From the NCBI GenBank assembly GCA_947259645.1, contig CAMYND010000009.1:7241-71240 (forward strand): a stretch of 64,000 nucleotides of DNA. The letters are read 5' to 3'. Positions 3,538 through 59,191 of this stretch are shown in pieces. Source of the DNA: Thermodesulfovibrionia bacterium (GTDB taxonomy: Bacteria > Nitrospirota > Thermodesulfovibrionia > UBA6902). Position 1 is the first letter of the stretch; every line of letters starts with the position of its first letter. The position numbers and the translations under genes were made by a program. Below the pieces are notes generated by a model. The model was not told the DNA's origin. It saw only the letters and a program-made list of their open reading frames with translations, and searched no databases.

Positions 3538-4650
3538 ATGCCCAATAAGAAAAGAAAAGGTTATATCAGATATATTTTTGTACTTCTTTTAATTGTTTCT
3601 TTTTCGCTGTTATCTGAAGGCGATGCATTTTCTGAAGACGTGGAGAAAAAATCGGAAAAAGAATATTGTAATTCTATCAATGATAAGTTCCGGAGTTATG
3701 GATGGAACAAGATCCGTTGTAATCCAAAGAGGTGGAACGTATATGATTACTCTGCCCAGGGGAACCCCCTCATCTACCAGGAATTTGGTTTTAATGACAA
3801 GAACAAGGATGTTCCGGTTAATTTGGTTCTCTGCGGTGTACACGGCGATGAGCCGACCAGTATATACCTCTGTTTTTATCTGACCCGCCACATTCTGTTT
3901 GATAATCCCCGGACAATGGATAACTTCAAAGTGGTTATAGCGCCTGTGGTAAATCCTGATGGGTTCTTTGCCAACACCAGACAAAATGGCAATGGGGTCG
4001 ACGTCAATAGAAATCTTCCGACCGGTGACTGGGAAGAGATGTCCCAGAAAGTATGGGCCCAGTACTCGAATGATAAGCGAAAAAACCCCGGTGAAAAAAG
4101 CGGGTCTGAAATAGAAAGCCAGTTGCAGGCCTATCTGATTGAGAGATATAAACCGGATAAAATCATGTCTGTGCATGCGCCATTGGGCTTCCTGGATTAT
4201 GATGGGCCCGGAGACCAGAAATATTACGACTTGATCCGTGTTGAGCAGAGAGCAAAATATTTAGGGTTAAACATTGAGGCCAATTCCAGAAGATTTGTTA
4301 AATTCGTGGATTACAAATTCTTTCCGGGCTCCCTGGGGAATTATGCAGGTAATGAGAGAAAAATTCCCACCTACACAGTTGAGCTGCCTACGGTGAACAC
4401 CGCCAAAGCGTACACCTACTGGTCATCGCTGAAGTTTGCACTTGTCAAGGCGTTAAGCTTTCAGATCTATGACGAAAACGAAGTGAACCCTTTTTATAGT
4501 CTGCAGCGTTCGCAGCAGGCCTTCAATAAGGAATACAAACTGGTTGCTATTGATGAAGATGATGAAAAAAACAATATGACCAGTAGCAGAAAAGTAAATA
4601 GAACTCCTGAGGGGGAAAAGGGCTCGTACAGAACTTTTTTCATTGAGTGA
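3538..4650 (+). CDS. zinc carboxypeptidase, M14 family (MpaA / gamma-D-Glu-mDAP amidase-like)
   Basis: N-terminal TM/signal. HGDEP zinc-binding motif. VNPDGF and GVDVNRN motifs are characteristic of M14 / succinylglutamate-desuccinylase-type peptidases. Confidence 0.65.
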   Translation: MPNKKRKGYIRYIFVLLLIVSFSLLSEGDAFSEDVEKKSEKEYCNSINDKFRSYGWNKIRCNPKRWNVYDYSAQGNPLIYQEFGFNDKNKDVPVNLVLCGVHGDEPTSIYLCFYLTRHILFDNPRTMDNFKVVIAPVVNPDGFFANTRQNGNGVDVNRNLPTGDWEEMSQKVWAQYSNDKRKNPGEKSGSEIESQLQAYLIERYKPDKIMSVHAPLGFLDYDGPGDQKYYDLIRVEQRAKYLGLNIEANSRRFVKFVDYKFFPGSLGNYAGNERKIPTYTVELPTVNTAKAYTYWSSLKFALVKALSFQIYDENEVNPFYSLQRSQQAFNKEYKLVAIDEDDEKNNMTSSRKVNRTPEGEKGSYRTFFIE

Positions 4651-4719
4651 TTTCAGATAGGCAAAAGAAGGTGTCTGCCGAAGCCGAGGGGCTGATCCTG
4701 ATTTTGCAGAGGTTTTAAC

Positions 4720-6675
4720 GTGAAAATATCTAAACAATCTGCAGTACAATCGATTTGCTTTCTTTTGCTCTTAATCTTTTTCATGCCCCTTGTTGCTCCT
4801 GCGGCGGAACTGGTTTACACAATACAGGTCGGAAGTTTTGCAAATGAAAATGATGCGCGTGAGTCTTATGGGTCTGTATCAGACCAACTGGATGAGAGTC
4901 AGCTTGATCATCTCAGGATAGAGAAGATAGGGCGGTTCTATGCCGTAAGAATCGGTAATTTTGAAAATCAGGAAACCGCAAAAGAGTTTCTTCAGACAGC
5001 AGGTTCGCTTTTTTCTTCATCAACGGTCATGACAGCCTATATTAAACAGGAAAGGCTGGTAGAAATCTATTCCGTTCATACAGCTGACAGGGTTGATCGT
5101 GACGCTGTCCTGAAAGGGGCTGAGCCCGCAGTTCAGGCTGCAGGTGTTCATGCCGCACCTGAGAAAAAACCAGGAGCAGCGCCTCAGACTGAGACAACCG
5201 GATCGAAGGGTGATTCCGGAGAACCTGTGGCTACTAGAGAGGAAACAAGGGTTATTCAGCAGAGTGTCCCGGATTCAGGCAGCGGCAGCGCTGAATTGGG
5301 TTTAAGAGAACCGGCAGAAGCTGAGTCCGGCGGGAATAACCTGAATGTGATACTCCCCCTGGCAGCACTGTTCTTGTTTGCAGGTATTTTTGTTGTCTCA
5401 CGGTTCCTGCGCAGACGGAGATCAAATTATTCGGTTCAGACAGGTTCTTTTTTAAATGAAGAAGATGCCCGGGAAAATTACACCTATCTCGTCAAGATGT
5501 TAAAAGCAGGAGACCTTGAGTCTCTTAGAATCGAAAAGACCGGAAAGAATTACTCAGTGAGGCTCGGAAAATTCAATGATCAGCAGGAAGCTGCGCATCT
5601 TCTTGAAACTATTAAACCGCGTTTCCCCGCTGCCATGACTGTGAAGACCTGCATTAAAGATAACAGGATTGTAACGATGTATGCTGCGCAGTCAGAATCT
5701 GGACAGGCACAAGGAGAGAGCACGAGAGAAGAAATCAGGCAGGTTCATACTGAAGAAAGAGCGCCAGTATCTGCATTTTCTGGTAACCCTGACAGCAGAG
5801 GAGAGGGTGCAGGGCATAATTCAGGAAATGGCGGGGATCCCGTTAAAAAAGATGACGAGCCATTAACAATTAAGGAATGCAAGGATGTTGTTGTGAGAAA
5901 TCCGAAAATGGCTGAGGCCTATAACGCTCTGGGGATTGCTTACAGCAGGGCCGGAATTTATAAATATGCGATTAATGCCTATAAAGATGCCATTAAGATC
6001 AAACCGGACTATGCCGAGGCGTACTGTAATCTTGGCATTGCCTGTAACAAGCTCGGTATGCTGAAGGATGCTGTCAAATCTCATAAAAAGGCCATTAAAA
6101 TTAAGCCTGACTATGCTGAAGCCCATTATAATATCGGGATAGCCTACATCTGGTCGGAAATGTATGATGAGGCAATAAAATCGAGTAAACTGGCTATTCA
6201 GTTAAAGCCGGACTTTGCTGACGCCTTTAACAGCCTCGGAATTGCCTGCAGTAAATCAGGTATGTATAAAAACGCCATAGAAGCTCATAAGCAGGCAGTT
6301 AATATAAAACCGGATTTTGCAGATGCCTATAATAACCTTGGAATCGCCTGCAGCAATTCAGGTATATATAAAGACGCCATTGAATCATATACGCAGGCGA
6401 TTAAAATAAAACCGGATTATGCTGAAGCGCACAACAACCTCGGGATTGCCTATAGCAAGTCCGGGATGTTTCAAGAGGCTATTGAATCCTATAAACGGGC
6501 TGTGGAAATAAAGCCAAACTATGCCGAAGCCCACAATAATCTCGGGATTGCCTACAGTCAGGAAGATCTGATGGATAACGCGATCGAAGCCTATAAAAGG
6601 GCAATTAAAATAAAGCCCAACTATAATGAGGCACGGCTTCATCTTGAGAATGCCTACAGCAAGTCCGGGATATAA
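4720..6675 (+). CDS. tandem SPOR domain - TM - TPR repeat protein
   Basis: GTG start and signal peptide. Two SPOR-like segments (YTIQVGSFANEN...RIEKIGRFYAVRIGNFENQETAKEF and YSVQTGSFLNEE...RIEKTGKNYSVRLGKFNDQQEAAHL). Internal TM segment. About 11 C-terminal TPR repeats (AEAYNNLGIAY... pattern). Confidence 0.65.
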   Translation: MKISKQSAVQSICFLLLLIFFMPLVAPAAELVYTIQVGSFANENDARESYGSVSDQLDESQLDHLRIEKIGRFYAVRIGNFENQETAKEFLQTAGSLFSSSTVMTAYIKQERLVEIYSVHTADRVDRDAVLKGAEPAVQAAGVHAAPEKKPGAAPQTETTGSKGDSGEPVATREETRVIQQSVPDSGSGSAELGLREPAEAESGGNNLNVILPLAALFLFAGIFVVSRFLRRRRSNYSVQTGSFLNEEDARENYTYLVKMLKAGDLESLRIEKTGKNYSVRLGKFNDQQEAAHLLETIKPRFPAAMTVKTCIKDNRIVTMYAAQSESGQAQGESTREEIRQVHTEERAPVSAFSGNPDSRGEGAGHNSGNGGDPVKKDDEPLTIKECKDVVVRNPKMAEAYNALGIAYSRAGIYKYAINAYKDAIKIKPDYAEAYCNLGIACNKLGMLKDAVKSHKKAIKIKPDYAEAHYNIGIAYIWSEMYDEAIKSSKLAIQLKPDFADAFNSLGIACSKSGMYKNAIEAHKQAVNIKPDFADAYNNLGIACSNSGIYKDAIESYTQAIKIKPDYAEAHNNLGIAYSKSGMFQEAIESYKRAVEIKPNYAEAHNNLGIAYSQEDLMDNAIEAYKRAIKIKPNYNEARLHLENAYSKSGI

Positions 6676-36198: not shown

Positions 36199-37002
36199 AT
36201 GTCTAACTCAATTCCCCCTATGTCCAACTATCGAATGACTATTTCTTATGATGGGCGGGCTTTCCTTGGCTGGCAGCGACATGGAAATCAGCCGACTGTT
36301 CAGTACGCCCTTGAGCAGGCGGTGGAGCAGGTGTTTAATGTCCGGGTGCCGGTACGGGGTTCCGGTCGCACTGATCGCGGAGCCCATGCGCTCGGTCAGG
36401 TGGTGAGCCTTCAGCTTCCGAATGGGTCAGAGCCCGAAGAAATCAAGAATAAGCTGAATGATGTTCTGCCTGTGGATGTGCGAATAGCGGATGTGCGTAA
36501 TGCATTGCCAGACTTTCATGCCTGTGATTCCGCCATTGCCAAGCGCTATCGTTATATCATCTGGAATGACAGTAAATTGCCGGCAGAACTTGATGGGCGG
36601 GTATGGCACATCAAGGAGCCTCTTGATCTGAAAGCGATGAATGACGCCTGTTCGATATTCGTAGGAGAGCATGATTTTGCTTCCTTTGCAACGCGACCAA
36701 ACTTCAAACAAAAATCAACCCGCCGCACTGTTATCGAGGCTGTTATCACGCATGAATTACCAACGATAACGTTCAAAATCTCGGCAGACGGATTTCTCTA
36801 CAAGATGGTGCGCAATATTGTACGTGCAATTGTTAAGGCAGGAGAAGGACGGTACACGCGTGACGACCTTTGTCGCATTCTTGATGCGAAAGACCGCAAG
36901 GCATCCCCCGGAACCGCTCCTGCATCAGGACTCTACCTTGAACGTGTGTTTTATCCAGAAGATCAAATTTCAGAGACAGCCAGGGGAGGAACCTCTCAAT
37001 GA
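36199..37002 (+). CDS. truA: tRNA pseudouridine(38-40) synthase TruA
   Basis: ISYDGRAFLGWQRH...VRGSGRTDRGAHALGQV carries the catalytic Asp motif. Start may be the internal ATG at 36220. Confidence 0.85.
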   Translation: MSNSIPPMSNYRMTISYDGRAFLGWQRHGNQPTVQYALEQAVEQVFNVRVPVRGSGRTDRGAHALGQVVSLQLPNGSEPEEIKNKLNDVLPVDVRIADVRNALPDFHACDSAIAKRYRYIIWNDSKLPAELDGRVWHIKEPLDLKAMNDACSIFVGEHDFASFATRPNFKQKSTRRTVIEAVITHELPTITFKISADGFLYKMVRNIVRAIVKAGEGRYTRDDLCRILDAKDRKASPGTAPASGLYLERVFYPEDQISETARGGTSQ

Positions 37003-41341: not shown

Positions 41342-41609
41342 TAAAATTATATTAGATGATCCTGCGCATTACATGCAGTAGCCAAAAAAGCGATTACATA
41401 TTCTGTAAACAGATTTCCTGACTCAGTATAGCTCAATGTCACATATCAAAGCTCAAATGCCAAATGAATGTCAAAATCTTAAGTTTTGATCAGACAAAGA
41501 CTAATAATAACGTGTAACATATGTGCCTGGATCGTACCGGGATGTGACATCTCTAATTCGTGAACAAGCTGGGGGCCACACAACAAATTATGTTGAAGGA
41601 GATAACATT

Positions 41610-43010
41610 ATGAAAAAGTTACTAATACTAACACTGTTGATCATTATAGTAATTGTAAGTCCGGTAATGGCACAGGAAGTTAAACAAATATTGAATGTTT
41701 CGGAGTTTGCAAACATAATTGACCAAACAGTGCCAGTGTTTGTTGACAGTGTTCCAACAAGGGAAGATGACTGGTACCACGGACGTCCCAAATATTCTCG
41801 CTTTTTACGCTTTAAAACGTTGAAAATGGCGTTTGGTGACGGCAATCCTGACAAAAAACATTTTAGGACAATGATGAGTGATTTGGGAATCACCAATGAC
41901 GACCACGTAGTATTATATGGTGCCAGGGGTGAAATTCCATATCATTTTGGAGCGTTTTACTTAATGAAATATTTCGGACACGAAAAGGTGAGCGTTTTAG
42001 ACGGTGGATTGTCCGAGTGGAGAGAGACGCAGCCAATTACAACTGAAGAAGTTACTGTTCAAAAAACTGAATACAAAGTTAAAGTGATGAATAGGAAAAT
42101 CCTCGCAGATGCTATCGATGTGTGGAGCAAGAGGTGGGATCCACATACTGCAATCATTGACGCAAGACTGCCGGAAGAAGTCAGTGGTTCCCTTGTTTTT
42201 GATGAGAATAAAAGGTCCGGTAGAATAGAATTATCTGTTAATGTTAACTGGTATGACCTGTTTAAGCCGAACGGGACCTTTAAAGAAGAATCAGAATTGC
42301 TGCAAAAGTTTGAAGATAAGGGCATCGGCAAGGACGATAACAGCATCGTCTACAGTCAGGCTGGGTACCGGGCGAGTGGTACGTATTTTGTGCTCACCCT
42401 GCTTGGTTTTCAGAATGTTAGAAACTATAGCGCAAGTTTTGTGGACTGGGCAAACCAGGAAAACAAAAAGAAGTATGCAGTCGTAGGGCCAGCATATTAT
42501 GTAGGTGGTAAAACGTGCAAGAAGTGTCACCGAAAACAGTACTTGTCATGGGCAAAGACCAAGATGGCGGTGAACTTCAATAACCTTAAACCAGGAGTTA
42601 AGGCAGACGCAAAAAAGAAGGTCGGCCTTGAACCGGAAAAGGATTACACCAATGATGAGAACTGTTTACCATGCCACACAACCGGGTACGGAAAACCAGG
42701 CGGTTTTGTAAGCCTAAAAGAAACGCCTGGATTAATAAACGTCCAGTGTGAGGGGTGTCATGGTCCTGGAAGCACATATGTGAAGCTAATGAAGGAAGGA
42801 AAGACAAAATGGGAAGAAGCAGGGTACACTGATGAACAGCTCAAGACAACTGGTTTAATAATTCCTGAAGAAAACGAACAGGGATGCATGGCATGCCACG
42901 GAGGTGATAGTCCATTTAACGAAAAAGTGGACTCAAAATACAATTGGAACTGGCCGGAAAGAGTACAAAAAACTCACAAACACTTCCCGCTCAAGTACAA
43001 AATAAAGTAA
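41610..43010 (+). CDS. periplasmic tandem rhodanese-like domains fused to a C-terminal tetraheme c-type cytochrome
   Basis: Signal peptide with an AAGGAG-type RBS. Two rhodanese-like modules (...VSVLDGGLSEW... and ...IVYSQAGYRASGTY...FVDW). The second active-site loop has Ser where the catalytic Cys is expected. Four CxxCH motifs follow (CKKCH, CLPCH, CEGCH, CMACH). Confidence 0.6.
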   Translation: MKKLLILTLLIIIVIVSPVMAQEVKQILNVSEFANIIDQTVPVFVDSVPTREDDWYHGRPKYSRFLRFKTLKMAFGDGNPDKKHFRTMMSDLGITNDDHVVLYGARGEIPYHFGAFYLMKYFGHEKVSVLDGGLSEWRETQPITTEEVTVQKTEYKVKVMNRKILADAIDVWSKRWDPHTAIIDARLPEEVSGSLVFDENKRSGRIELSVNVNWYDLFKPNGTFKEESELLQKFEDKGIGKDDNSIVYSQAGYRASGTYFVLTLLGFQNVRNYSASFVDWANQENKKKYAVVGPAYYVGGKTCKKCHRKQYLSWAKTKMAVNFNNLKPGVKADAKKKVGLEPEKDYTNDENCLPCHTTGYGKPGGFVSLKETPGLINVQCEGCHGPGSTYVKLMKEGKTKWEEAGYTDEQLKTTGLIIPEENEQGCMACHGGDSPFNEKVDSKYNWNWPERVQKTHKHFPLKYKIK

Positions 43011-43681
43011 ACCCAAGCCGGTGGTGCGATCAGTTGGTGTTGTGCTTGAACCAATAAGTACGATGCTTTTTATTGCGGGGAGCACTCTCATCATAGGAAA
43101 AGCTATATGAGAAAAATTCAAATTATTAAATTCAATAACTTCTCGAATCATTAATAAACAGGTGAAGTCGTCAATCTGAAACCATCATCAATCTTACAGA
43201 TTACATGATATTTCCAACTTGGTTTATTCTATATATTTTCTGAGAACTATTGTAATAAGTCAACAATCTTCCCTTTGCCAGGTTTTTATTCAGAATCCCC
43301 TCATATCAATGAGCTGTCATTAAAGGAAGCATTGAACATTACAATCGTTAATATATGACAATTGGCATTTTATTCTTGAAGTTTACCTATTAATGCACTA
43401 ATATCAAGAGCAAAGTATTTTTTCAATCTAGCATTCACGTGTAGATAATTAATCTCCCTTAACTAAAATAGCGTTACCAAACTACACAAAAAAAGGTCGT
43501 GCTATACCGATGCACTTATTATTATGATAGACTGCATAGTAATTATTACTTAATTAAGGATTTTTAAAATTAGTATTATTTGTCGTTCAGTCTAATCAAC
43601 TGTTATATGAAAAATAAAAAGACGATAGTATTATTAATATTGGAAGCTTTATTAGTATCGTTCTGCTTTACAGTTATTATC

Positions 43682-43719
43682 GGTATAATTAATGCCAGGT
43701 GGTATAATTAATGCCAGGT
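43682..43719 (+). repeat. 19-bp perfect tandem direct repeat (ggtataattaatgccaggt x2) upstream of the CaCA gene
   Basis: Copies at 43682-43700 and 43701-43719. Each carries a TATAAT box. Confidence 0.7.
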
Positions 43720-43741
43720 TATTTTTAAAACCAAAAGTCAT

Positions 43742-44989: not shown

Positions 44990-45469
44990 ATGACTGCATT
45001 GTGCAAGAGTGACTTAATTATGGAGAATAACAATATGCCTAATTCAGATCAAACGTCCAATTCAAACTGGACTATTCTTTTTATATGTTGGCTGATAGCC
45101 AGTATCTCTGCGCTGGGGAGCCTTTTTTTTAGCGAAATAATGAATTTTGCTCCTTGTGTTTTGTGCTGGTATCAGAGAATTTGTTTATTCCCACTGGTTT
45201 TAATTTTATCAATGGGGCTCTTTCACTTTGATAAAAGCGTTGTCAGGTTTGCCCTTCCCTTAGCTTTAATAGGATGGTTTATCGCGTTTTACCACAACCT
45301 TCTTTATTCCGGGATTATTCCAGAAAGCATACAACCCTGCAGTCAGGGTGTTTCATGCACAGAGGACTACATCAACTTGTTTGGCATTTTCACAATTCCT
45401 ATGTTAGCCTTAATATCATTTTCAGCAATAGCAATTTTATTATTTATGTTAAAGAGGAGACTTTCCTAA
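44990..45469 (+). CDS. dsbB: disulfide bond formation protein B (DsbB/BdbC family)
   Basis: Four TM segments. CVLCWYQRI CxxC in the first periplasmic loop and a second Cys pair (CSQGVSC). True start is probably an internal ATG (about 45020-45035). Confidence 0.65.
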   Translation: MTALCKSDLIMENNNMPNSDQTSNSNWTILFICWLIASISALGSLFFSEIMNFAPCVLCWYQRICLFPLVLILSMGLFHFDKSVVRFALPLALIGWFIAFYHNLLYSGIIPESIQPCSQGVSCTEDYINLFGIFTIPMLALISFSAIAILLFMLKRRLS

Positions 45470-46173
45470 TGAAAAAGAAAAAAACAAAGACAAAGCAAAA
45501 ATCAATAGAAAAGCAGAAGCCAGTAAACAAACGAAATATAGTTATCATTTCAGCGATCTGCCTGGCACTTATTTTTGTGCTTGGTAGCTATATCTACAAA
45601 TCCCAGCAAGCCACAAATCTAAGCTTTATGGCTAGAGAAAACGCTTCAACGTTTGTTAGAGAATATTCACAGACGCTCGGCAGTGATGACGCAAAAGTTT
45701 ATATCGTAGAATTTTTCGACCCGGCATGTGAAACCTGTAGAGACTTTTATCCTTTTGTTAAAAAACTCATGGCTGCCAACCCGGGGAAGATTAAACTCGT
45801 TATGAGATATGCCCCTTTTCATGATGGCTCAGATTATGTTGTAAAGATGCTTGAAGCTGCAAGAAAACAGGGAAGGTATTGGGAAACTTTGGAGGTTATG
45901 TATAAGTATCAACCTCACTGGGCAAGTCATCATAAGCCACAGCCTCAAGTATTATGGCAAGTTCTTCCAGAGGCAGGTCTGAATTTAGAACAAATTAAAA
46001 GTGATATGAATAGTCAAGAAATAGCTCAACTGATTAAACAAGACCTTACAGATACTAAAACTCTCAATGTCAGGAAAACGCCTGAGTTTTTCGTAAACGG
46101 GAAACCGCTTCCAAGCTTTGGTTACAACCAATTAAAAGAATTAGTAGAAGCTGAAATTCGGGCAAATTATTAA
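45469..46173 (+). CDS. DsbA-family thiol:disulfide oxidoreductase (BdbD-like), membrane-anchored
   Basis: ATG overlaps the dsbB stop (TAATG). Lys-rich N-terminus plus a TM anchor. Thioredoxin-fold CETC active site (FFDPACETCRDF). Confidence 0.7.
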   Translation: MKKKKTKTKQKSIEKQKPVNKRNIVIISAICLALIFVLGSYIYKSQQATNLSFMARENASTFVREYSQTLGSDDAKVYIVEFFDPACETCRDFYPFVKKLMAANPGKIKLVMRYAPFHDGSDYVVKMLEAARKQGRYWETLEVMYKYQPHWASHHKPQPQVLWQVLPEAGLNLEQIKSDMNSQEIAQLIKQDLTDTKTLNVRKTPEFFVNGKPLPSFGYNQLKELVEAEIRANY

Positions 46174-46361
46174 ATTTAAATTATCAGTAGCAAAAACACA
46201 TAACCAGGCAGTGCTGTGAAATCGAACCAGCGGTATCTTTTTGAGATGTGATTGTTTTATATATTCAAACTGTTTTTTAGCATGTTAATATTCACAAGGG
46301 TTCGATTCACAGACTTCATCGTTCGATCTTAATGAAGACAAAATCAACAAAGGAGACCACC

Positions 46362-46901
46362 ATGAAATTGAAAACAGATGAAGGAGGATGGAACCCGTAT
46401 TTCGCCGGAGCCCTCTTAGGTTTACTGGCGATTATTTCAGTGTTTGCCACAACCAAACTCATGGGCAAAACCAACTACCTAGGTGCATCTACTACCTTCG
46501 TTCGCGCCGCTGGTATTTTAGAGAAAACGGTGGCTGCTGCTCACGTGGGATCAAATGAGTATTTCACTAAAACGAAGGTCGTTGTTGATTGGCAGTTCAT
46601 GCTGGTTATCGGAATTGTTCTCGGCTCCTTTATATCATCTATTTTGGACAAGAGCTTCCAATTGGAGAGTGTCCCTCCTACATGGAAAAGACGATTTGGC
46701 CCCTCGATTAATAAACGAGCAGTGGGCGCCATTGCGGGAGGGATTATCGCTATGATCGGCGCTCGATTGGCTGATGGTTGTCCAAGTGGGCATGGCCTAA
46801 GCGGAATGATGCAATTGTCGGCAAGTTCTTTTGTTGCTTTGGTTATGTTTTTTGCCGTAGGTGCTCTGGTCGCTCGTATAGTTTATGGGAGGATATCATG
46901 A
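46362..46901 (+). CDS. YeeE/YedE family (sulfur/selenium transport, DUF395) half-transporter, part 1
   Basis: RBS AAAGGAGA before ATG 46362. TM segments. Conserved GCPSG motif (ADGCPSGHGLSG). Confidence 0.6.
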   Translation: MKLKTDEGGWNPYFAGALLGLLAIISVFATTKLMGKTNYLGASTTFVRAAGILEKTVAAAHVGSNEYFTKTKVVVDWQFMLVIGIVLGSFISSILDKSFQLESVPPTWKRRFGPSINKRAVGAIAGGIIAMIGARLADGCPSGHGLSGMMQLSASSFVALVMFFAVGALVARIVYGRIS

Positions 46902-47428
46902 ATACAGATCAATGGCTGGGACTTGTAACAGGCGTATTGTTTGGGTTTTTATTACAAAAAGGTCGTGTCCTCCGTTTTGAAAAACAAATCGGGGCACTGT
47001 TGCTAAAGGACATGACGATAGTCAAATTCATGCTGTCAACAATTTTGGTAGGTATGGTCGGAATACTCCTGCTTTCGAGTTTTGAGATTATTACCTTGAG
47101 TCACAAGCCAATGAATCTTGGCGCTGTATTAATAGGAGGAGCTTTCTTCGGTGCAGGATGGGCAATCATGGGTTTTTGCCCAGGCACATCTCTAGGCGCT
47201 TTGGGCGAAGGACGGTGGCATGCCTTGTTTGCCATAATTGGCATGGTGGCAGGGGCAGCACTTTATGCGGAATTGTATCCCTTTTTTAAAACGACAGTAC
47301 TTGCCTGGAAAGACTTCGGTAAGATCGGATTACAGGAAGCTCTGGGTGTCCCATTGTGGGTCATTGTTCCTTGCTTCTGGGCAGGAACAATTTCCTTGTT
47401 TTTATGGATAGAGAGAAAAGGACTCTAA
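46898..47428 (+). CDS. YeeE/YedE family half-transporter, part 2
   Basis: ATGA overlap with part 1. Conserved GFCPGTS motif. Confidence 0.6.
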   Translation: MNTDQWLGLVTGVLFGFLLQKGRVLRFEKQIGALLLKDMTIVKFMLSTILVGMVGILLLSSFEIITLSHKPMNLGAVLIGGAFFGAGWAIMGFCPGTSLGALGEGRWHALFAIIGMVAGAALYAELYPFFKTTVLAWKDFGKIGLQEALGVPLWVIVPCFWAGTISLFLWIERKGL

Positions 47429-52475: not shown

Positions 52476-54932
52476 TTAAGTCCCCTCTACCTTCACCGTA
52501 TTAATAGGATGCTCTCCATTTGAAGACAGGCGTGTGAGCATGTTTATTCTGGCATGGGGAAAGTGAGTTGGTACGAAGACCGTTCCTTCTGGCACATCGT
52601 CGGAGAGGGCAGCCTTGAGAAATACTGAGCCCTGTCGCGATGAGACCTTAACGTGGCTGTTGTCCGCGATGTCATATTTTTTCGCGTCTTCTTCATTGAT
52701 CTCCAAAAGAGCTTCCGACACAACAAGGTCAAGTGATTTTGAACTGGTAGACATGCTCCCGGAGTGCTGGAGAATATCTCTGATCACGAGTTTAAAGGGG
52801 TATTCTTTGTCTGCTTCTTCTCCCGGCCTGAATTCGACAGGATGAAAAGTTCTCTGAACAGAGACAGGATCCGCAGGACTGCCTGCATCCCCGATTTCTT
52901 CCTTAACAGCAGCGAGATCTCTTATCCCGACATCTTTGCCCATGGAGAGGGCAAGATTTTTCAGGATCATCCAGTCAGGCATGGACTGGCCGGTCGCGTC
53001 AGCAAGTTTATATACTGTCTGGTGAGTGCCTTCAGCGTTAATGAAGGTGCCGTCCTTTTCTGCCCAGCTTGAAGCCGGAAGCACAACATTAGCAAGTTTT
53101 GCTGTCTCGGTCATGAAAATATCCTGTACAACGAGAAAATCCAGGGATTTTAATTTAGCCATCACTTTGGAGCTGTCCGGAAAAGTCGTCACAGGATCCT
53201 CCCCCATAATATAGAGGGCTTTTACGGAGTTGTCCTCATAGAGCATCTTTACAATATCTTTGTCAGATGGTTGCATGGGTCTGACGCCCATATTATAAAG
53301 ACCATAGGTATTTGAGTATTCAGCAGGGACCTGGAGTGAATCAGGCTCGTCGCCGAGAAGATTAATGAGGTTTGCAGCAGCAAGTACTGTATCCAGTCCT
53401 TTTGTGTTTTCTGAAGTACTGACTGAAAGGGATATCATTCTGCTCTTTGCATTGCCAATGGACTCTGCTGCGGCTATAATTTCCTCTTCACTGATCCCTG
53501 TTATTTTTGAGACGTTTTCAGGTGTGTAGTTCTTCAGAGTTGACTGAAGTGACGAGAACTCAGGAATGGCTGATGCAGCGCTCTTATCGTATAAGCCTTT
53601 ATCCAGTATTACCTTTGTTAATCCATTAACAAGCGCAAGGCTTGTTCCGTCCTTGATTTCAAGCCAATCAGTGCTGTGCCGGGTGAGTTTTGTTTCCCGG
53701 GAATCAGCTACTATAAGCTTGCTGCCTGCTCTCATTGCCTCGAGGATGTTAATTCCATATACCGGGTGGGTTACGCTTATATCTGATTCAAGAATCAGAA
53801 TGACCTCTTTCCCTGCGGGAGCGTTAAGGCTTATGGGGTGATTCTTCTGGCCGAATGCTTTTTCCCATACTTTTTGCACTCCGCCATATCCAAAGGCCGC
53901 GGATGAGTCAAGGTTGTTTGTGCCGACCACGTTCTTCATGAATTTCTGAAGCACATAATTGTCTTCATTCGTGCAGCGGGGAGAACCGATCGCGCCTATT
54001 GACGAGGCACTGGAATTTTTTGAGATCTTCTCAAGGTTTTTTGCAACGTAGGAGAGGGCATCTTCCCATGATACGCTTTTAAACTCATCGCCTTCCTTAA
54101 TGAGCGGTGTCTTGAGGCGCTTTTCACTATAGATATAATCAATGCCGAATCTGCCGCGTCCGCAGAGGTTTCCGTCATTTACTCCTGTTCCCTGTTTTCC
54201 TCTGGACCTGAGAATTTTTCCCTCCCTCATGCCGAGATGGAGCGTGCAGCCAACGCCGCAGAAGGGACAGATGGTGCTTTTCTCCTCAAGAAACCATGAG
54301 CGTGAGGTAAATTTGTAGGGTTTGCTCAAGATCGCTCCGGTTGGACAAATATCAAGGCATTGCCCGCAGTAGTCACACTCGAGTATTTCGCCAAAAGCAG
54401 GCTGAACAACCGTTGGGAACCCCCTGCCGATCAGTCCCAGGGCACCTCTTCCCTGATGGTCTCTGCAGATTCGTACGCACTTTCCGCAAAGGATGCAGCG
54501 CCGTGACGTAAGTTCAATTAACGGGCCCCGGATGTCTGATTTCGTCTCTTTTCTGGACCGGATAAACCGTGTGTCAGGTTTGCCGTATTCATAGGCGAGG
54601 TCCTGGAGGTCACATTCCCCAGCCTTGTCACATTCAGGACAGTCAAGGGGATGATGGACCAGGAGGAGTTCTATTACTGTCTGGCGCTGTTTCCTTAATT
54701 TTGGTGTGTCTGTCTGAATGACCATTCCGTCAGCAGCAGGGGAAGAGCATGCTGCAAGAAGACGGGCCTGACCCTCTACTTCAACAATGCAGAGCCTGCA
54801 TCCCCCGTAAGGCCTGAGCCTCTTGTCGTAGCACAAATTCGGGATATAAATATCATTTTGCAAAGCAGCTTCCAGAATGGTGCAACCCTGTTCTGCCTGG
54901 ATTTTCTTGTTGTTTATCGTGAGATTCATCAT
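52476..54932 (-). CDS. molybdopterin-oxidoreductase-fold subunit, FdhA/NuoG-like (N-terminal 2Fe-2S, His-ligated 4Fe-4S, 2x 4Fe-4S and MopB cluster); catalytic Sec/Cys apparently absent
   Basis: CYDKRLRPYGGCRLC (2Fe-2S). HHPLDCPECDKAGECD. CILCGKCVRIC and CDYCGQCLDICP. CPFCGVGC (MopB FS0). C-terminal molybdopterin-dinucleotide-binding-like domain. Where FdhF has GTNNVDCCARV-U-HGPS, this protein has GTNNLDSSAAFGYGGV. Confidence 0.6.
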   Translation of the reverse strand: MMNLTINNKKIQAEQGCTILEAALQNDIYIPNLCYDKRLRPYGGCRLCIVEVEGQARLLAACSSPAADGMVIQTDTPKLRKQRQTVIELLLVHHPLDCPECDKAGECDLQDLAYEYGKPDTRFIRSRKETKSDIRGPLIELTSRRCILCGKCVRICRDHQGRGALGLIGRGFPTVVQPAFGEILECDYCGQCLDICPTGAILSKPYKFTSRSWFLEEKSTICPFCGVGCTLHLGMREGKILRSRGKQGTGVNDGNLCGRGRFGIDYIYSEKRLKTPLIKEGDEFKSVSWEDALSYVAKNLEKISKNSSASSIGAIGSPRCTNEDNYVLQKFMKNVVGTNNLDSSAAFGYGGVQKVWEKAFGQKNHPISLNAPAGKEVILILESDISVTHPVYGINILEAMRAGSKLIVADSRETKLTRHSTDWLEIKDGTSLALVNGLTKVILDKGLYDKSAASAIPEFSSLQSTLKNYTPENVSKITGISEEEIIAAAESIGNAKSRMISLSVSTSENTKGLDTVLAAANLINLLGDEPDSLQVPAEYSNTYGLYNMGVRPMQPSDKDIVKMLYEDNSVKALYIMGEDPVTTFPDSSKVMAKLKSLDFLVVQDIFMTETAKLANVVLPASSWAEKDGTFINAEGTHQTVYKLADATGQSMPDWMILKNLALSMGKDVGIRDLAAVKEEIGDAGSPADPVSVQRTFHPVEFRPGEEADKEYPFKLVIRDILQHSGSMSTSSKSLDLVVSEALLEINEEDAKKYDIADNSHVKVSSRQGSVFLKAALSDDVPEGTVFVPTHFPHARINMLTRLSSNGEHPINTVKVEGT

Positions 54933-56782
54933 TATTTGTCACCTCCCTCTTTAACTGCCGAGACAGGTTTTTCTTTCCGGATGGCCGGCTTTACCTCAAT
55001 TGAGGCGAATTTGCAGGTGTCATAGCATGACCTGCACTGTATGCACAGTTCCTGAATGATCCTGTGGGCCTTTTTCTTTTCTCCGACGATGGCTTCCTGC
55101 GGACATGCCCGCAGGCAGGCACCGCATCCCTTGCACAGTTCTTCGGAAATATGAAATGAGCAGAGGTCGCTGCATATTCCTGCTTCACACCAATGATCTT
55201 TAATGTGTGCTTCATATTCATGTTTGAAATATCGTATCGTGGAAAGGACGGGATTCGGGGCTGTCTGGCCGAGTCCGCAAAGAGATGTACTGATAATGTC
55301 CCTGCTCAGGTCTTCAAGCTTTTCAATATCGCCTTCCTGTCCTCTGCCCTCTGTTATGTCGGTGAGCATATCGAGCATTACTCTTGTTCCGACGCGGCAG
55401 GGGGTGCATTTCCCGCATGATTCATCGGCGGTAAACTCAAGAAAAAACTTTGCCGTGCTCACCATGCAAGTGTCTTCGTCCATTACTACCATTCCTCCTG
55501 AACCCATGATAGCACCGGTCTTGACAATGTCTTCGTAGGTTACGGGGATGTCGATATGGTCCTCGGGGATACAGCCTCCTGAGGGGCCGCCCATTTGCAC
55601 GGACTTGAACTTTTTCTTTTTGTTTGTCATCCCGCCACCGATATCATAGATAATCGTTTTCAGAGGGGTTCCCATGGGGACTTCGACGAGCCCGACGTTT
55701 TTTATATCCCCTGTAAGGGCAAATACCTTTGTGCCGGTACTCTTTTCAGTCCCCAGTGACTTGTACCATTCAGCCCCGTTCAGGATGGTTGGGGCTATCT
55801 GTGCCAGGGTCTCAACGTTGTTCAGGACTGATGGCTTGTCCCACAGGCCCTTATGGGCAGGGAAGGGAGGACGTGGTCTTGGCATACCGCGCTTTCCTTC
55901 AATGGAACGCATCAGCGCTGTTTCTTCACCGCATACAAATGCCCCTGCACCCAGGTATATTTCAAGGTCAAAGTTAAATCCGCTTCCCAAAATGTTTTCA
56001 CCAAGAAGACCATTCTCACGACAAAGCTTAATCGCTGTTTCAAGCCTCGCTACTGCCAGCGGATACTCGGCTCTGACGTAGATTACGCCTTTGCTCGCGC
56101 CTATCGCCTTTGCGCCGATTAACATGCCTTCGATTACTGAGTGGGGATCAGATTCCATAACAGACCTGTCCATGAATGCCCCGGGGTCACCTTCGTCACC
56201 GTTGCACAGCATGAACTTCTGGTCAGCTACTGACTTTGAGGCGAACTCCCACTTTAACCCTGTCGGGAAACCTGCTCCTCCCCGTCCCCTGATTCCTGCG
56301 TCTTTAATAGTCTGTATTATATCTTCCGGGGTCATTTCCGTTAAGGCCTTACCAGCAGCCATATACCCGTCTCGTGCGATGTACTCATCCAGGCTGTCAG
56401 GATCAATGAGCCCCTTATTCCTCAGGACCCTCAATACCTGGTGCTTGAAGAACGGGATATCATTCATTAATGGAATGGCTGCCCTCTTCTCAGGGTCCTT
56501 GAACATCAGTTTTTCATAGGGCCGGCCTTTCAGGAAGTGCTCTTCAACAAGTTTCGGGACTTCCGCGACAGTCAATTTCTGATAAAAGATCTCTTCAGGG
56601 TACACCAGCATTACAGGCCCTTCAGCACAGAATCCGTTGCATCCGGTCAGCACGATCTTTACCTCGTCGGCAAGGCCCTGCTTTTCCAGCTCTTCCTGAA
56701 GGGCATCTTTAACCTTGGGGGTCCCGCTTGCAACGCATCCGGTCCCGGCACACATGAGTAAATTGGCACGATATTTTTCCAT
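54932..56782 (-). CDS. NuoF/HndC-like NAD(P)H-binding flavoprotein subunit with N-terminal thioredoxin-like 2Fe-2S domain and C-terminal 2x[4Fe-4S] ferredoxin domain
   Basis: GRGGAGFPTGLKWEF (FMN/NADH site). ESCGKCTPCRVGT (N3 cluster). CKGCGACLRACP and CIQCRSCYDTC ferredoxin motifs. N-terminal CAGTGC...C. Confidence 0.8.
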   Translation of the reverse strand: MEKYRANLLMCAGTGCVASGTPKVKDALQEELEKQGLADEVKIVLTGCNGFCAEGPVMLVYPEEIFYQKLTVAEVPKLVEEHFLKGRPYEKLMFKDPEKRAAIPLMNDIPFFKHQVLRVLRNKGLIDPDSLDEYIARDGYMAAGKALTEMTPEDIIQTIKDAGIRGRGGAGFPTGLKWEFASKSVADQKFMLCNGDEGDPGAFMDRSVMESDPHSVIEGMLIGAKAIGASKGVIYVRAEYPLAVARLETAIKLCRENGLLGENILGSGFNFDLEIYLGAGAFVCGEETALMRSIEGKRGMPRPRPPFPAHKGLWDKPSVLNNVETLAQIAPTILNGAEWYKSLGTEKSTGTKVFALTGDIKNVGLVEVPMGTPLKTIIYDIGGGMTNKKKKFKSVQMGGPSGGCIPEDHIDIPVTYEDIVKTGAIMGSGGMVVMDEDTCMVSTAKFFLEFTADESCGKCTPCRVGTRVMLDMLTDITEGRGQEGDIEKLEDLSRDIISTSLCGLGQTAPNPVLSTIRYFKHEYEAHIKDHWCEAGICSDLCSFHISEELCKGCGACLRACPQEAIVGEKKKAHRIIQELCIQCRSCYDTCKFASIEVKPAIRKEKPVSAVKEGGDK

Positions 56783-56913
56783 ATCTTTTCCCTCTATCTA
56801 TAAAGTAGTATTCTGATCCTCTGTTTTCTGAAAAATATCAATCTCCTGAATGTAATCAGGATAATAAACGTTGTGTATTGTTTTTGTCTTTACGCTGACA
56901 GCTGAAAGCTGAA

Positions 56914-57297
56914 TTAATACGTTGTCTCACTCCCCATCACGAGGGCATATTTCTCTACAGGTGTGCCGCCGAGGACATGATCCTTAAAGATCTCCTTCAG
57001 TTTATCAACGGTAACATCGCCATATTTTACCGGTGTGTTATCAGCTATTTCCACGGTCATCATCGGTTCACGGGCACAGAGTCCGGCGCAGCCTGAGGTG
57101 GTGGTAATAACATCATTAACTTTAGATTCTGTGATTTCATCTATCAGGGCTGTCATGATATCCCGCGCTCCCGCTGCTATTCCGCAGGTTCCCATATGAA
57201 CGGTAACTTTTGCCCTGTATCCGCCTTCTCTCAGGTTGAATGTTGCCTGCTGTTTTTCTTTTATTTTCTTTAAATCAGCGATCGTTAACTTTGCCAT
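56914..57297 (-). CDS. HndB-like small thioredoxin-fold [2Fe-2S] ferredoxin
   Basis: 127 aa. HMGTCGIAAGA...SGCAGLCAREP Cys pattern matches the NuoE/HndB-type 2Fe-2S fold. Confidence 0.55.
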   Translation of the reverse strand: MAKLTIADLKKIKEKQQATFNLREGGYRAKVTVHMGTCGIAAGARDIMTALIDEITESKVNDVITTTSGCAGLCAREPMMTVEIADNTPVKYGDVTVDKLKEIFKDHVLGGTPVEKYALVMGSETTY

Positions 57298-57381
57298 TTG
57301 AGTCCTCCTGTTATTGCTGTGCCCGTTGTTTCAGTTACTAAAACGTGCATGAATCAGTAACACAGATTGCCGAACCTTTTA

Positions 57382-58254
57382 TCATGCGTATTCTTCCAGA
57401 ACACCCTGAACCTTTTTTGGTGTCATTGCACCGTATGTTTCTTCATCCACGACAATAACAGGCGCAAGACCGCATGCCCCGAGGCACCGTACTGTTTCGA
57501 TAGAGAATTTTTTGTCTTCCGTAACCTCTCCAACATCTATTTTGAGCGTTGATTTGAATTTTTCCAGTACTTCCTCTACTCTCTTTACGTAGCACGCTGT
57601 GCCGAGACATACCCTGACATTATGGTCCCCTCTGGGTTTCATGGTGAAATAGGAATAAAATGTCACGATACTGTGAATTTCTGCCGGAGACATATTGAGC
57701 CCCTTCGCGACCCGTTTCTGCACAACAGGGGGCAAATATCCGACGATTGCCTGACAGCGCTGGAGAACAGGGATTGAACTTCCCGGCTTGTTCCTGTACT
57801 CCTTTATGACCCGGTCAATCTCCTGTCTCATGGACGGGGGAAATTCTTCCTCTTTTTTCTCTTCTTCAACAGCAGCCTTGCCCTTTATCCACTGCACTGA
57901 CCGTTCTGTTACGTCCAGAAGCACTGCCGGGGTAAAGGGTTTCGGCACATAATCGATTATTCCGGCTTCAAGGGCATCTTTAATCGTATCCTGTGACGGG
58001 TACCCCGTGATGACAACGATACCGGTGTCAGGCCTGTTCTGCCTGATCCACTTAATAAGGGTGATACCATCTACTTCAGGCATCTTAAGGTCAGTGAATA
58101 CGAGGTCATAGGGGGTCTGCTCCATCTTCAGTATCGCCTCTTTGCCTCCCAGAACTCCTTCGATATTGTACCCTTCGGACCTGAGTACCGATTCGCAGCT
58201 TCTGATAATGACGGGCTCATCGTCAACAACCAGAATTTTAATATCATCTGCCAT
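57382..58254 (-). CDS. response-regulator receiver domain fused to NuoE/HndA-like [2Fe-2S] subunit
   Basis: N-terminal CheY-like domain (ILVVDDEPVII...DLVFTDLKMPEVDG...KPF). C-terminal NuoE signature (IPVLQRCQAIVGYLPP...VCLGTACYVKRVEEV...VRCLGACGLAPV). Confidence 0.75.
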   Translation of the reverse strand: MADDIKILVVDDEPVIIRSCESVLRSEGYNIEGVLGGKEAILKMEQTPYDLVFTDLKMPEVDGITLIKWIRQNRPDTGIVVITGYPSQDTIKDALEAGIIDYVPKPFTPAVLLDVTERSVQWIKGKAAVEEEKKEEEFPPSMRQEIDRVIKEYRNKPGSSIPVLQRCQAIVGYLPPVVQKRVAKGLNMSPAEIHSIVTFYSYFTMKPRGDHNVRVCLGTACYVKRVEEVLEKFKSTLKIDVGEVTEDKKFSIETVRCLGACGLAPVIVVDEETYGAMTPKKVQGVLEEYA

Positions 58255-58426
58255 AAGAAGCCTCCATTGCGCTGTTTATAGGTGGACGTTTAAATGAAAA
58301 GGCAGGCTTTACACGTATTGAGAAACACCCGGGACAATTATGTGCATGGACCTGTTTATTCATATTTGCTGTTCAGTGTACCTGTTACCAATTTCTGTCT
58401 TATCCTTCGATCTGAGAGACAAAACC

Positions 58427-59191
58427 CTATTTTGCTAAGGGGAATACTTTTGCCAGCCAAAGAAGCCATCCTTCTGATAGATGGTCCTTAAGAAGTGCTG
58501 CCATGACGTCATTCGCCTTCGTATTGATCTCTCTGAGCTCTCCATTCATGGGAGAAAGCAGGCTTTGTGATTTGCCGCTGCTTGTATAAATATTCGCAAA
58601 AACCTGACCCGCATCAAGGGTATCCAGATCTTTAACAAACTCTACATACATTAAATCTCCTGCAAGCATCCAGTATCTCAGGTCACAGCCGACTTCCCAC
58701 AGTCCGTCGCCGGAGGGTCGTGCCCAGGTGCCTTCTTTATAAAAAATAACAGGGTTTTCCTGGTCCCGCAGGGGTGATACAAAGTCCCTGAAATCGTCAA
58801 TAAAGGCCTGCCGCAATATCCAGCCCCGGGTGTCAAAAACCTTCTGGGCGACATTAAGCATAAAGTCAGGGGTAAAGGGTTTTTCAATGTATTCCGCTGC
58901 TCCCAGTTTTGACGATTCCTTGGCATCTTCCAGAGTCGGGTAACCCGTAATTATCACTACGTCTGTTTTCGGCTTGATGACACGGGCTTCCTTAAGCACT
59001 TCTAGCCCGCTCATTCCCGGCATTTTCACATCGGATATCAGGAGGTCAAAATCTTCTTTTGAGAGTTTATTGAGGGCATCTTCTCCGTTATCTACCGTGG
59101 AAATGCTGTAACCTTCAGCTCCGAGAATTCTCTTGCAGCTTAAGGTTACAATTGGATCATCATCGACTACTAGTATTCTCCCTTTTTCCAT
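58427..59191 (-). CDS. response-regulator receiver domain fused to a GcvH-like (lipoyl/biotinyl-type hybrid barrel) domain
   Basis: N-terminal CheY-like domain (ILVVDDDPIV...DLLISDVKMPGMSG...KPF). The C-terminal about 120 aa aligns by eye with glycine-cleavage H protein (FYKEGTW...GLWEVGCD...AGDLMYVEF...YTSSGKSQSLLSPMNGELREIN...EGWLLWLA), including a Lys at the lipoyl-Lys position. Confidence 0.5.
   Translation of the reverse strand: MEKGRILVVDDDPIVTLSCKRILGAEGYSISTVDNGEDALNKLSKEDFDLLISDVKMPGMSGLEVLKEARVIKPKTDVVIITGYPTLEDAKESSKLGAAEYIEKPFTPDFMLNVAQKVFDTRGWILRQAFIDDFRDFVSPLRDQENPVIFYKEGTWARPSGDGLWEVGCDLRYWMLAGDLMYVEFVKDLDTLDAGQVFANIYTSSGKSQSLLSPMNGELREINTKANDVMAALLKDHLSEGWLLWLAKVFPLAK

Follow-up and report, generated by a model that had tools for sequence, protein, structure and literature searches.

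A secreted cytochrome c554-family protein with four predicted hemes, fused to a tandem rhodanese that lacks its catalytic cysteine

The closest described relatives of the gene considered here belong to two separate protein families: the tetraheme cytochrome c554 of Nitrosomonas europaea (CycA; PDB entries 1bvb, 1ft5 and 1ft6) and the CysA/SseA-type tandem rhodaneses (CysA2/3 of Mycobacterium tuberculosis, 3aax and 3hwi; the Thermus thermophilus rhodanese, 1uar). We analysed a 64 000-nt stretch of DNA from a genome labelled as Thermodesulfovibrionia bacterium (assembly GCA_947259645.1, contig CAMYND010000009.1, positions 7241 to 71 240 of the forward strand; ‘the window’ in what follows), in which one gene encodes relatives of both in a single polypeptide. 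From the N-terminus, this polypeptide consists of a Sec signal peptide, a tandem rhodanese whose fold is CysA/SseA-like, a short flexible linker and a domain of the cytochrome c554 family that has four CxxCH motifs. With a probability of roughly 0.5, the product serves electron transfer in the periplasm, as a cytochrome to which a pseudo-rhodanese is attached for binding or docking. Both domains are textbook ones, and their joining is undescribed in the literature that we searched; we regard the protein as a curiosity of modular evolution, not as a new kind of system.

Wolinella Sud works with polysulfide reductase, and SoxL is found in sox clusters. In Geobacter the rhodanese lipoprotein ExtH is encoded together with pentaheme ExtKL (PMC6148476), the latter being now known as the polysulfide reductase MccSep (PMC13510729). 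Cable bacteria and other Desulfobulbales express periplasmic rhodaneses (pRho) at high levels (PMC13047784). The MccSep multiheme selenoenzyme was itself considered as a rhodanese fusion and is not one (PMC13510729). Sud, SoxL and ExtH, rhodaneses of the periplasm or the outer surface, resemble the window protein in that a rhodanese fold has as its counterpart a periplasmic multiheme or molybdo-enzyme that takes part in sulfur or selenium respiration; unlike it, they are separate polypeptides with an active Cys, and ExtH is a lipoprotein. Against the ExtH model NF040901 the window protein scored 33.6 bits (cut-off 200), and it has no lipobox and no porin or pentaheme neighbours; thus, it was not assigned to ExtH.

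Rhodanese homology domains that keep the fold with the active-site Cys replaced, the N-domains of tandem rhodaneses included, offer another likeness; to our knowledge no inactive domain of this kind is fused to a multiheme cytochrome. Those of the MAP-kinase phosphatase N-termini and of USP8/Doa4, which differ from the window protein in being eukaryotic and cytosolic, serve in binding or targeting (e.g. PMC2064681). Full-text searches of the literature gave no description of a rhodanese fused to a c554, a tetraheme or a multiheme cytochrome.

The longest open reading frame (ORF) across the region spans 41523..43010 (+) and offers a choice between a GTG and an ATG start. We take the ATG at 41610 as the real start because a ribosome-binding site, GAAGGAGA (41595–41602), lies 7 nt upstream and the orthologues begin at the same Met; the site was read directly from the sequence, in a region that aligns with orthologous loci L002 and L003 (L numbers denote loci and P numbers proteins). 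An exact look-up of the ATG-start form gave no entry; in the database the window protein is recorded, as P0349, under the longer GTG-start call. The whole gene (41610..43010; this and all other features of the gene are on the + strand) is an uninterrupted frame for a 466-aa precursor followed by a TAA stop; the mature protein has ∼445 aa and ∼51 kDa without hemes.

The rhodanese–cytochrome fusion is real. Two stretches match Pfam Rhodanese (PF00581; 77.1 bits, cut-off 22.2), and the C-terminal part matches Pfam Cytochrome_C554 (PF13435; 88.2 bits, cut-off 20.8, E = 7e-25). All eight Cys of the protein lie in the four CxxCH motifs, which start at residues 303, 352, 380 and 426. The original prediction, made from the letters of the window, had proposed just such a chain of signal peptide, tandem rhodanese of the thiosulfate or 3-mercaptopyruvate sulfurtransferase (TST/MST) type and tetraheme C-terminus; the first two parts stand as proposed, and the third can now be refined to a module of the cytochrome c554 family. 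It had also named a missed stop codon between two genes as the observation that would undo the fusion. We saw no hidden stop, and the same gapless frame of 466 codons is present in L002, L003, L095 and about 10 cluster members from independent assemblies.

A Sec-type signal peptide, MKKLLILTLLIIIVIVSPVMA, occupies 41610..41672; it was read directly, with the cleavage site, before QE, predicted by eye. It has no lipobox Cys, therefore the protein is not a lipoprotein. Signal peptides are also present on the close stand-alone rhodanese relatives, and attachment of c-type heme requires protein export. The product is a secreted two-module protein, soluble or signal-anchored.

The N-terminal rhodanese-fold domain (41673..42089) was delimited by Pfam, alignments with PDB sequences, our family alignment A1, an AlphaFold2 (AF2) model and Foldseek; the C-terminal one (42090..42458), normally the catalytic domain and here the pseudo-enzyme, by Pfam, the PDB alignments and A1. 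The phmmer search against PDB sequences aligned residues 80–284 with tandem rhodaneses (E about 5e-29), at ∼27–29% identity. In the AF2 model the predicted local distance difference test (pLDDT) is >90 over the whole rhodanese part, and Foldseek gave a template modelling (TM) score of 0.83 to M. tuberculosis CysA3 (3aax). The model thus predicts an intact rhodanese fold of two domains, as in the CysA/SseA-type enzymes.

The catalytic features of these enzymes are lost. The prediction that Ser replaces the catalytic Cys of the second module was borne out on alignment with characterized rhodaneses: ‘ivySqagyras’ is paired with ‘iayCrigerss’ in M. tuberculosis CysA2/3 and with ‘vvyCriaerss’ in the T. 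thermophilus enzyme, Ser249 (AGT, 42354–42356) stands at the catalytic Cys of 3aax, 3hwi, 1uar and 8k55, and no alignment gives a Cys there. The former active-site loop, SQAGYRAS, covers 42354..42377. Among the 12 sequences of the window clade (the window, P0001, P0002, P0003, L003/P0351 and about seven more members of the 90% cluster) 10 carry Ser at the catalytic position and two, P0001 and P0002, carry Gly. The codon there is AGT or GGT in the orthologues and TGC in a Cys-bearing relative; a single change separates either AGT or GGT from TGT. The rhodanese part of the window protein holds no Cys at all. In L002 (P0002) a Cys occurs four residues before the former catalytic position (residue 245, DNCIVYG), either a real variant or a sequencing error.

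Two further motifs are degenerate. The GHIPGA of active rhodaneses is replaced by GRIELS (42219..42236; alignment A1 with P0004, P0005, P0016 and P0007), G[RK]I[EQ]LS across the window clade, and GSWxEWGN has become ASFVDWAN throughout that clade; both motifs are retained in P0004, P0005 and P0016. The equivalent of GHIPGS in the N-terminal domain is degenerate as well (HGRPKYS); that domain is non-catalytic in all tandem rhodaneses. The score against the NCBIfam SseA equivalog model NF008557, 87.4 bits, is below the cut-off of 250. As the Cys is replaced by Ser or Gly, no other Cys is present in the rhodanese part and both GHIPGA and GSWxEWGN are degenerate, we conclude that the module is very probably not a sulfurtransferase and would be unable to form a persulfide.

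The second module (42501..43007, residues 298–466; PF13435, phmmer against 1bvb) appears to have all that a c554-type tetraheme domain requires. Residues 295–461 align with the whole of N. europaea c554 (E = 6e-26), all four CxxCH being in register: heme I, CKKCH (residues 303–307, 42516..42530); heme II, CLPCH (352–356, 42663..42677); heme III, CEGCH (380–384, 42747..42761); heme IV, CMACH (426–430, 42885..42899). In L002 (P0002) the heme IV site reads GGMECH, not GCMECH, with the first Cys lost, again through either true variation or an error in sequencing.

In c554 the distal ligands are His27 for heme III, His102 for heme I and His179 for heme IV, and heme II is five-coordinate under Thr154-Pro155-Phe156; this numbering agrees with the alignment, in which the first CxxCH contains His15 and T154-P155-F156 stands where expected. 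In HMMER alignments Met319 (42564..42566), in the signature SWAKTKMA (SW[AK][KR]TKMA in the family), corresponds to His27; Met394 (42789..42791, KLMK) corresponds, less certainly, to His102; and His456 (42975..42977, THKHF) corresponds to His179, also in the family alignment. The heme II distal pocket is conserved as S434-P435-F436 (42909..42917). Of 82 family members taken from the genome and contig loci, 79 have Met319, 55 have Met394, 80 have His456 and 80 have the pocket Pro. MAFFT places a gap at Met394, which makes this ligand assignment the weakest. Since the domain has only six His, four of them proximal ligands, a set of four bis-His hemes is impossible; the alignments indicate that two hemes are probably His/Met, one bis-His and one five-coordinate. 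Such a set points to potentials above those of classic bis-His multiheme carriers.

The domain thus shares with CycA the four aligned CxxCH, the His179 equivalent and the T/S-P-F pocket at heme II, and both proteins would be periplasmic electron carriers. Still, the window protein is not an orthologue: it falls below the cut-off of NCBIfam NF043010 (100.4 against 400 bits), has Met319 and Met394 for distal His27 and His102 in the alignment, has shorter loops and carries the fused rhodanese. It comes from an anaerobic bacterium of the sulfur cycle rather than from an ammonia oxidizer, and the HAO partner is absent.

Between the modules lies a linker of ∼14 residues (284–297; 42459..42500), the most variable part of the mature protein, with half of its columns varying among the orthologues. 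AF2 confidence is low here; pLDDT is <50 at residues 294–306, which include the start of the heme domain.

That such a fusion is rare, as had been proposed, was confirmed on a large scale. A HMMER profile search of 1.84 billion representatives at 50% identity found exactly two proteins spanning both domains, P0003 from the window clade and P0005 from a Cys-bearing clade; all other matches were rhodanese-only or c554-only. A word-indexed search of 5.8 billion proteins returned a handful spanning both. In 185 579 species, one genome each, we found 411 loci with a c554-like module, and the best 80 of the 411 included one rhodanese fusion, L003. With the rhodanese part alone as the seed, a scan of metagenomes yielded no more than the PJEL fusions and secreted rhodaneses of the stand-alone kind.

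The other fusions known to us, P0004, P0005 and P0007, come from metagenomes and have the same domain pair in the same order. P0004 and P0005 (42–44% identity) consist of a transmembrane anchor, a coiled coil, a tandem rhodanese and c554; P0007 is a single rhodanese with c554. Their heme modules are 55–66% identical to that of the window protein, whereas their rhodaneses are only 33–40% identical to it, and their N-termini and linker lengths differ. Unlike the window clade, all three keep CQxG[VIF][RK]A and GHIPGA, as do the closest stand-alone secreted tandem rhodaneses (P0016, P0062, P0064, P0072, P0073, L084–L093), which share secretion with the window protein. The identity matrices are ambiguous between a single and an independent origin of the two tandem-rhodanese fusions; we infer that the window protein descends from, or parallels, rare secreted fusions of a Cys-keeping sulfurtransferase with a cytochrome.

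Most commonly the heme module occurs on its own, as a secreted protein of ∼200 aa, often in several copies per genome in Thermodesulfovibrionia/Nitrospirota and present also in Acidobacteriota, Desulfobulbales and other groups. Elsewhere the module is fused to coiled coils, to TPR repeats and FGE-sulfatase (SUMF1) domains (P0039–P0043) or to Redoxin/AhpC-TSA (P0057), and it forms the C-terminal part of the UshA-like PCGU selenoprotein family (NCBIfam NF041198). It is evidently a portable electron-wire module, and it appears to recur as a wire for periplasmic thiol or chalcogen chemistry.

Two observations on individual loci may be added. In L096 (6885–8317; P0003 and P0340) a frameshift just past heme I splits the fusion into ORFs of 377 aa and 73 aa, while the nearly identical copy in L095 (P0344) is intact; the L096 copy is a strain-level pseudogene or an assembly error. 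On the L088 contig, which has a stand-alone secreted Cys-bearing rhodanese relative, there are a 401-aa ORF with several CxxCH (434–1639) and a 100-aa ORF (4562–4864), DsrE/DsrF-like as judged by eye only.

To see how the rhodanese module has evolved, one can set its two domains beside the heme domain. The second rhodanese domain of the window clade is 32–36% identical to those of P0004 and P0016, and the latter two are 60% identical to each other, whereas the heme domains are 55–66% identical in all the same comparisons. These values place the window-clade rhodanese, as far as pairwise identities tell, on a long branch. Among the window, L002 and L003 the ratio of non-synonymous to synonymous substitution rates (dN/dS, Nei–Gojobori) was 0.16–0.24 for the N-domain, 0.18–0.31 for the C-domain and 0.13–0.14 for the cytochrome, with no indels in 466 codons. 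In the former active-site loop three of the eight positions vary among 11 orthologues, against a domain average of 38%; the most conserved rhodanese stretches, e.g. residues 40–60, 84–104, 121–135 and 181–200, lie away from the loop. The module is thus under purifying selection and is not decaying at present. Because dN/dS is well below 1, indels are absent and the conservation of the loop is only average, we read the module as a pseudo-enzyme in which selection would act on the fold and not on the old catalytic pocket.

The same figures bear on whether the rhodanese module is a functionless left-over, the protein being simply another c554-like periplasmic carrier similar to its ∼200-aa stand-alone paralogues. 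That form is by far the commonest (at least 80 loci, several per genome), the catalytic residues are gone, evolution is about twice as fast in the second rhodanese domain as in the heme domain and one copy, in L096, is frameshifted, all of which such a history would explain. A useless secreted appendage of ∼270 aa (∼31 kDa) should, however, decay or be deleted, while the observed dN/dS stays at 0.16–0.31, no indel has appeared in 271 codons of about 12 orthologues and the fold is predicted confidently. We consider a left-over unlikely.

We favour instead a Sec-exported periplasmic protein in which a c554-family tetraheme would be tethered, by its ∼14-residue flexible linker, to a tandem rhodanese presumably incapable of sulfur transfer. 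The four hemes would be the working part and would pass electrons on within the periplasm. The rhodanese would have become a pseudo-enzyme in the window lineage and been kept for binding a partner protein or surface, so that as a docking module it could give the cytochrome specificity for a partner or a location. Of the two roles named in the original prediction, such non-catalytic docking is the one we favour over the binding of a sulfur substrate at the old active site, because close orthologues have Gly at the catalytic position, the loop is conserved only to an average degree and GHIPGA is lost.

Several points weigh against this reading. The docking role is reached by exclusion and by analogy with the Cys-less rhodanese homology domains, and the neighbouring genes, none of them conserved, hint at no partner or ligand. 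Q250, G252 and R254 of the old anion-binding cradle (Q-x-G-x-R) are invariant across the Cys-less and the Cys-bearing clades, and judging by these residues the cradle may still bind anions. AF2, which models no hemes, performs poorly on the heme domain (pLDDT 45–90), and the ligand assignments lean on the alignment to one solved structure together with the ligand set of c554. Finally, the transfer of the gene between phyla, taken up below, is drawn from one marker gene per contig, with the fusion at the very end of the L003 contig.

The invariant cradle is also the starting point of another explanation, that the protein is an enzyme of a new type: the Cys-less cradle would bind thiosulfate, sulfite, polysulfide or selenite non-covalently and present it to the five-coordinate heme II for redox chemistry. 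In line with it, the S/T-P-F distal pocket of heme II is conserved as in c554, relatives join the heme module to thiol or chalcogen domains (the Cys-rhodaneses of P0004, P0005 and P0007, the Redoxin/AhpC of P0057, the UshA-like selenoprotein), and there is a weak match to ExtH, a selenite/tellurite rhodanese. On the other side, the loop varies at 3/8 positions among orthologues that are ∼86% identical, no better than the domain average, position 249 is either Ser or Gly, and GHIPGA is lost. Neither is a flexible, poorly conserved linker what one would expect of a fixed substrate channel to a heme, and the five-coordinate heme of c554 is itself sterically crowded by the same P-F pocket. Such an enzyme is in our opinion quite improbable. 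One could speculate further that the cradle is a non-covalent pocket feeding a sulfur or selenium oxyanion or polysulfide to the five-coordinate heme and that, together with the Cys-bearing relatives, the protein represents an unrecognized class of periplasmic heme-dependent chalcogen oxidoreductases passed between Nitrospirota and Desulfobulbaceae; we rate this broader idea as a long shot.

It is very improbable that the module is still a sulfurtransferase in which Ser249 or some other residue acts as nucleophile. In its overall fold and in most of its loop it resembles a rhodanese, but persulfide chemistry requires a thiolate or a selenolate; the window's rhodanese part has no Cys, Gly takes the place of Ser in P0001 and P0002, and the NCBIfam SseA score is far under the cut-off (87 against 250 bits). 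The idea of an artefact, in which an error in sequencing or an overlooked stop had run two genes together, found no supporting point and can be dismissed, given the same continuous frame in at least five independent assemblies (NCBI, JGI, ENA and Logan) at 88–91% nucleotide identity and with no gaps.

As regards expression, a terminator-like hairpin followed by the T-run TTTTTATT is located at 43036..43067, 26 nt past the stop. The fusion gene is separated from that of the Na/Ca exchanger by an AT-rich gap of 730 nt (43011–43741) with no ORF >43 aa and no Rfam match. With its own ribosome-binding site and terminator-like hairpin, followed by this gene-free gap, the fusion gene looks monocistronic. 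A sigma-54 promoter, an idea prompted by a sigma-54 activator near L002, was rejected as the motif TGGCAC-N5-TTGC is missing from the conserved 85-nt leader common to the window and L002. Rfam and tRNA scans of the whole 64-kb window gave no match.

The upstream neighbours in the window are truA, a SpoU methylase, SelO, TrmO_N and a secreted dienelactone hydrolase; downstream follow the Na/Ca exchanger, DsbB, DsbA, two YeeE halves, an integrase and HupE. The sulfur and thiol genes that had been pointed out nearby do exist (DsbB, DsbA and YeeE at 44990–47428), but they are not a conserved context. Similarity to the window in L002, L003 and L095/L096 extends from about 10–85 nt before the ATG to a few nt past the stop; no neighbour is conserved between the window and L001, L002, L003, L095 and L096, all flanking genes being different. 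As similarity ends at the gene borders in L002, L003 and L095, the DsbA, DsbB and YeeE genes give no functional evidence, and the reading of an operon or of a sulfur/thiol context was dropped. No sulfur-respiration or cytochrome genes were found in the rest of the 64-kb window. A hint of selenite or tellurite metabolism (a methyltransferase and SLAC1/TehA downstream in L002, SelO in the window, the weak ExtH match) was set aside as coincidence, since none of these is conserved between loci.

The fusion gene seems to behave as a mobile accessory gene and not as a member of an operon. In L095 and L096 it lies between transposases of the IS110 and DDE types and HigBA/ParE toxin–antitoxin modules. 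In the window, TruA is 87% identical to a protein of a Desulfobulbaceae bacterium and 71% to one of Desulfopila, and 32–47% identical to the TruA proteins on the Nitrospirota loci. The L003 contig, labelled Thermodesulfovibrionia, carries a fusion copy that is 85% identical, and its citrate synthase is 72–75% identical to Nitrospirota-labelled proteins. The heme module of the fusion is 57–68% identical to stand-alone Nitrospirota proteins and 44–50% to those of Desulfobulbales. With near-identical copies on the Desulfobulbaceae-like backbone of the window and on a Nitrospirota contig, and beside transposases, these identities suggest a probable recent transfer of the gene between phyla, its direction probably being from Nitrospirota into Desulfobulbaceae.

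Some other features of the surroundings were recorded. In four Nitrospirota loci (L018, L022, L027 and L050) truA is divergent to, and directly adjoins, a stand-alone c554-like gene; in the window truA (36199–37002) lies 5 kb upstream of the fusion, and this proximity may be a coincidence. The intergenic stretch 46200–46323, from DsbA to the first YeeE half, is 73.6% identical over 125 nt to L095 2033–2157, which is non-coding and lies upstream of a trypsin-like gene. The window stretch contains a long-range inverted repeat, CTGTGAAATCGAACC ... GGTTCGATTCACAG, with a fold z-score of only −1.1; it has no match at the Rfam gathering threshold and no second copy in the window. YeeE/YedE (Sulf_transp) is present as two overlapping half-size ORFs: 46332–46901 corresponds to the C-terminal half of the Pfam model and 46778–47428 to its N-terminal half. 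On the minus strand, 52476–59191 encodes a NuoG/FdhA-like molybdopterin protein and a NuoF-like protein and then two unusual response-regulator fusions, of a receiver with a thioredoxin-like [2Fe-2S] (NuoE-like) domain (57382–58254) and of a receiver with a glycine-cleavage-H-like domain (58427–59191).

Unless a partner or ligand comes to light, the window copy, a natural pseudo-enzyme on an electron wire, is of modest practical importance, and its Cys-bearing cousins are the more attractive targets for enzymology. The family as a whole forms a before-and-after series: fusions in which a persulfide-carrying Cys would be tethered to a heme wire, set against a Cys-less lineage with a dead module under selection. 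Such a series would be useful for asking how pseudo-enzymes gain binding roles in bacterial periplasmic electron transfer, and whether rhodanese persulfide and heme may exchange electrons directly in sulfur-disproportionating or sulfur-oxidizing anaerobes.

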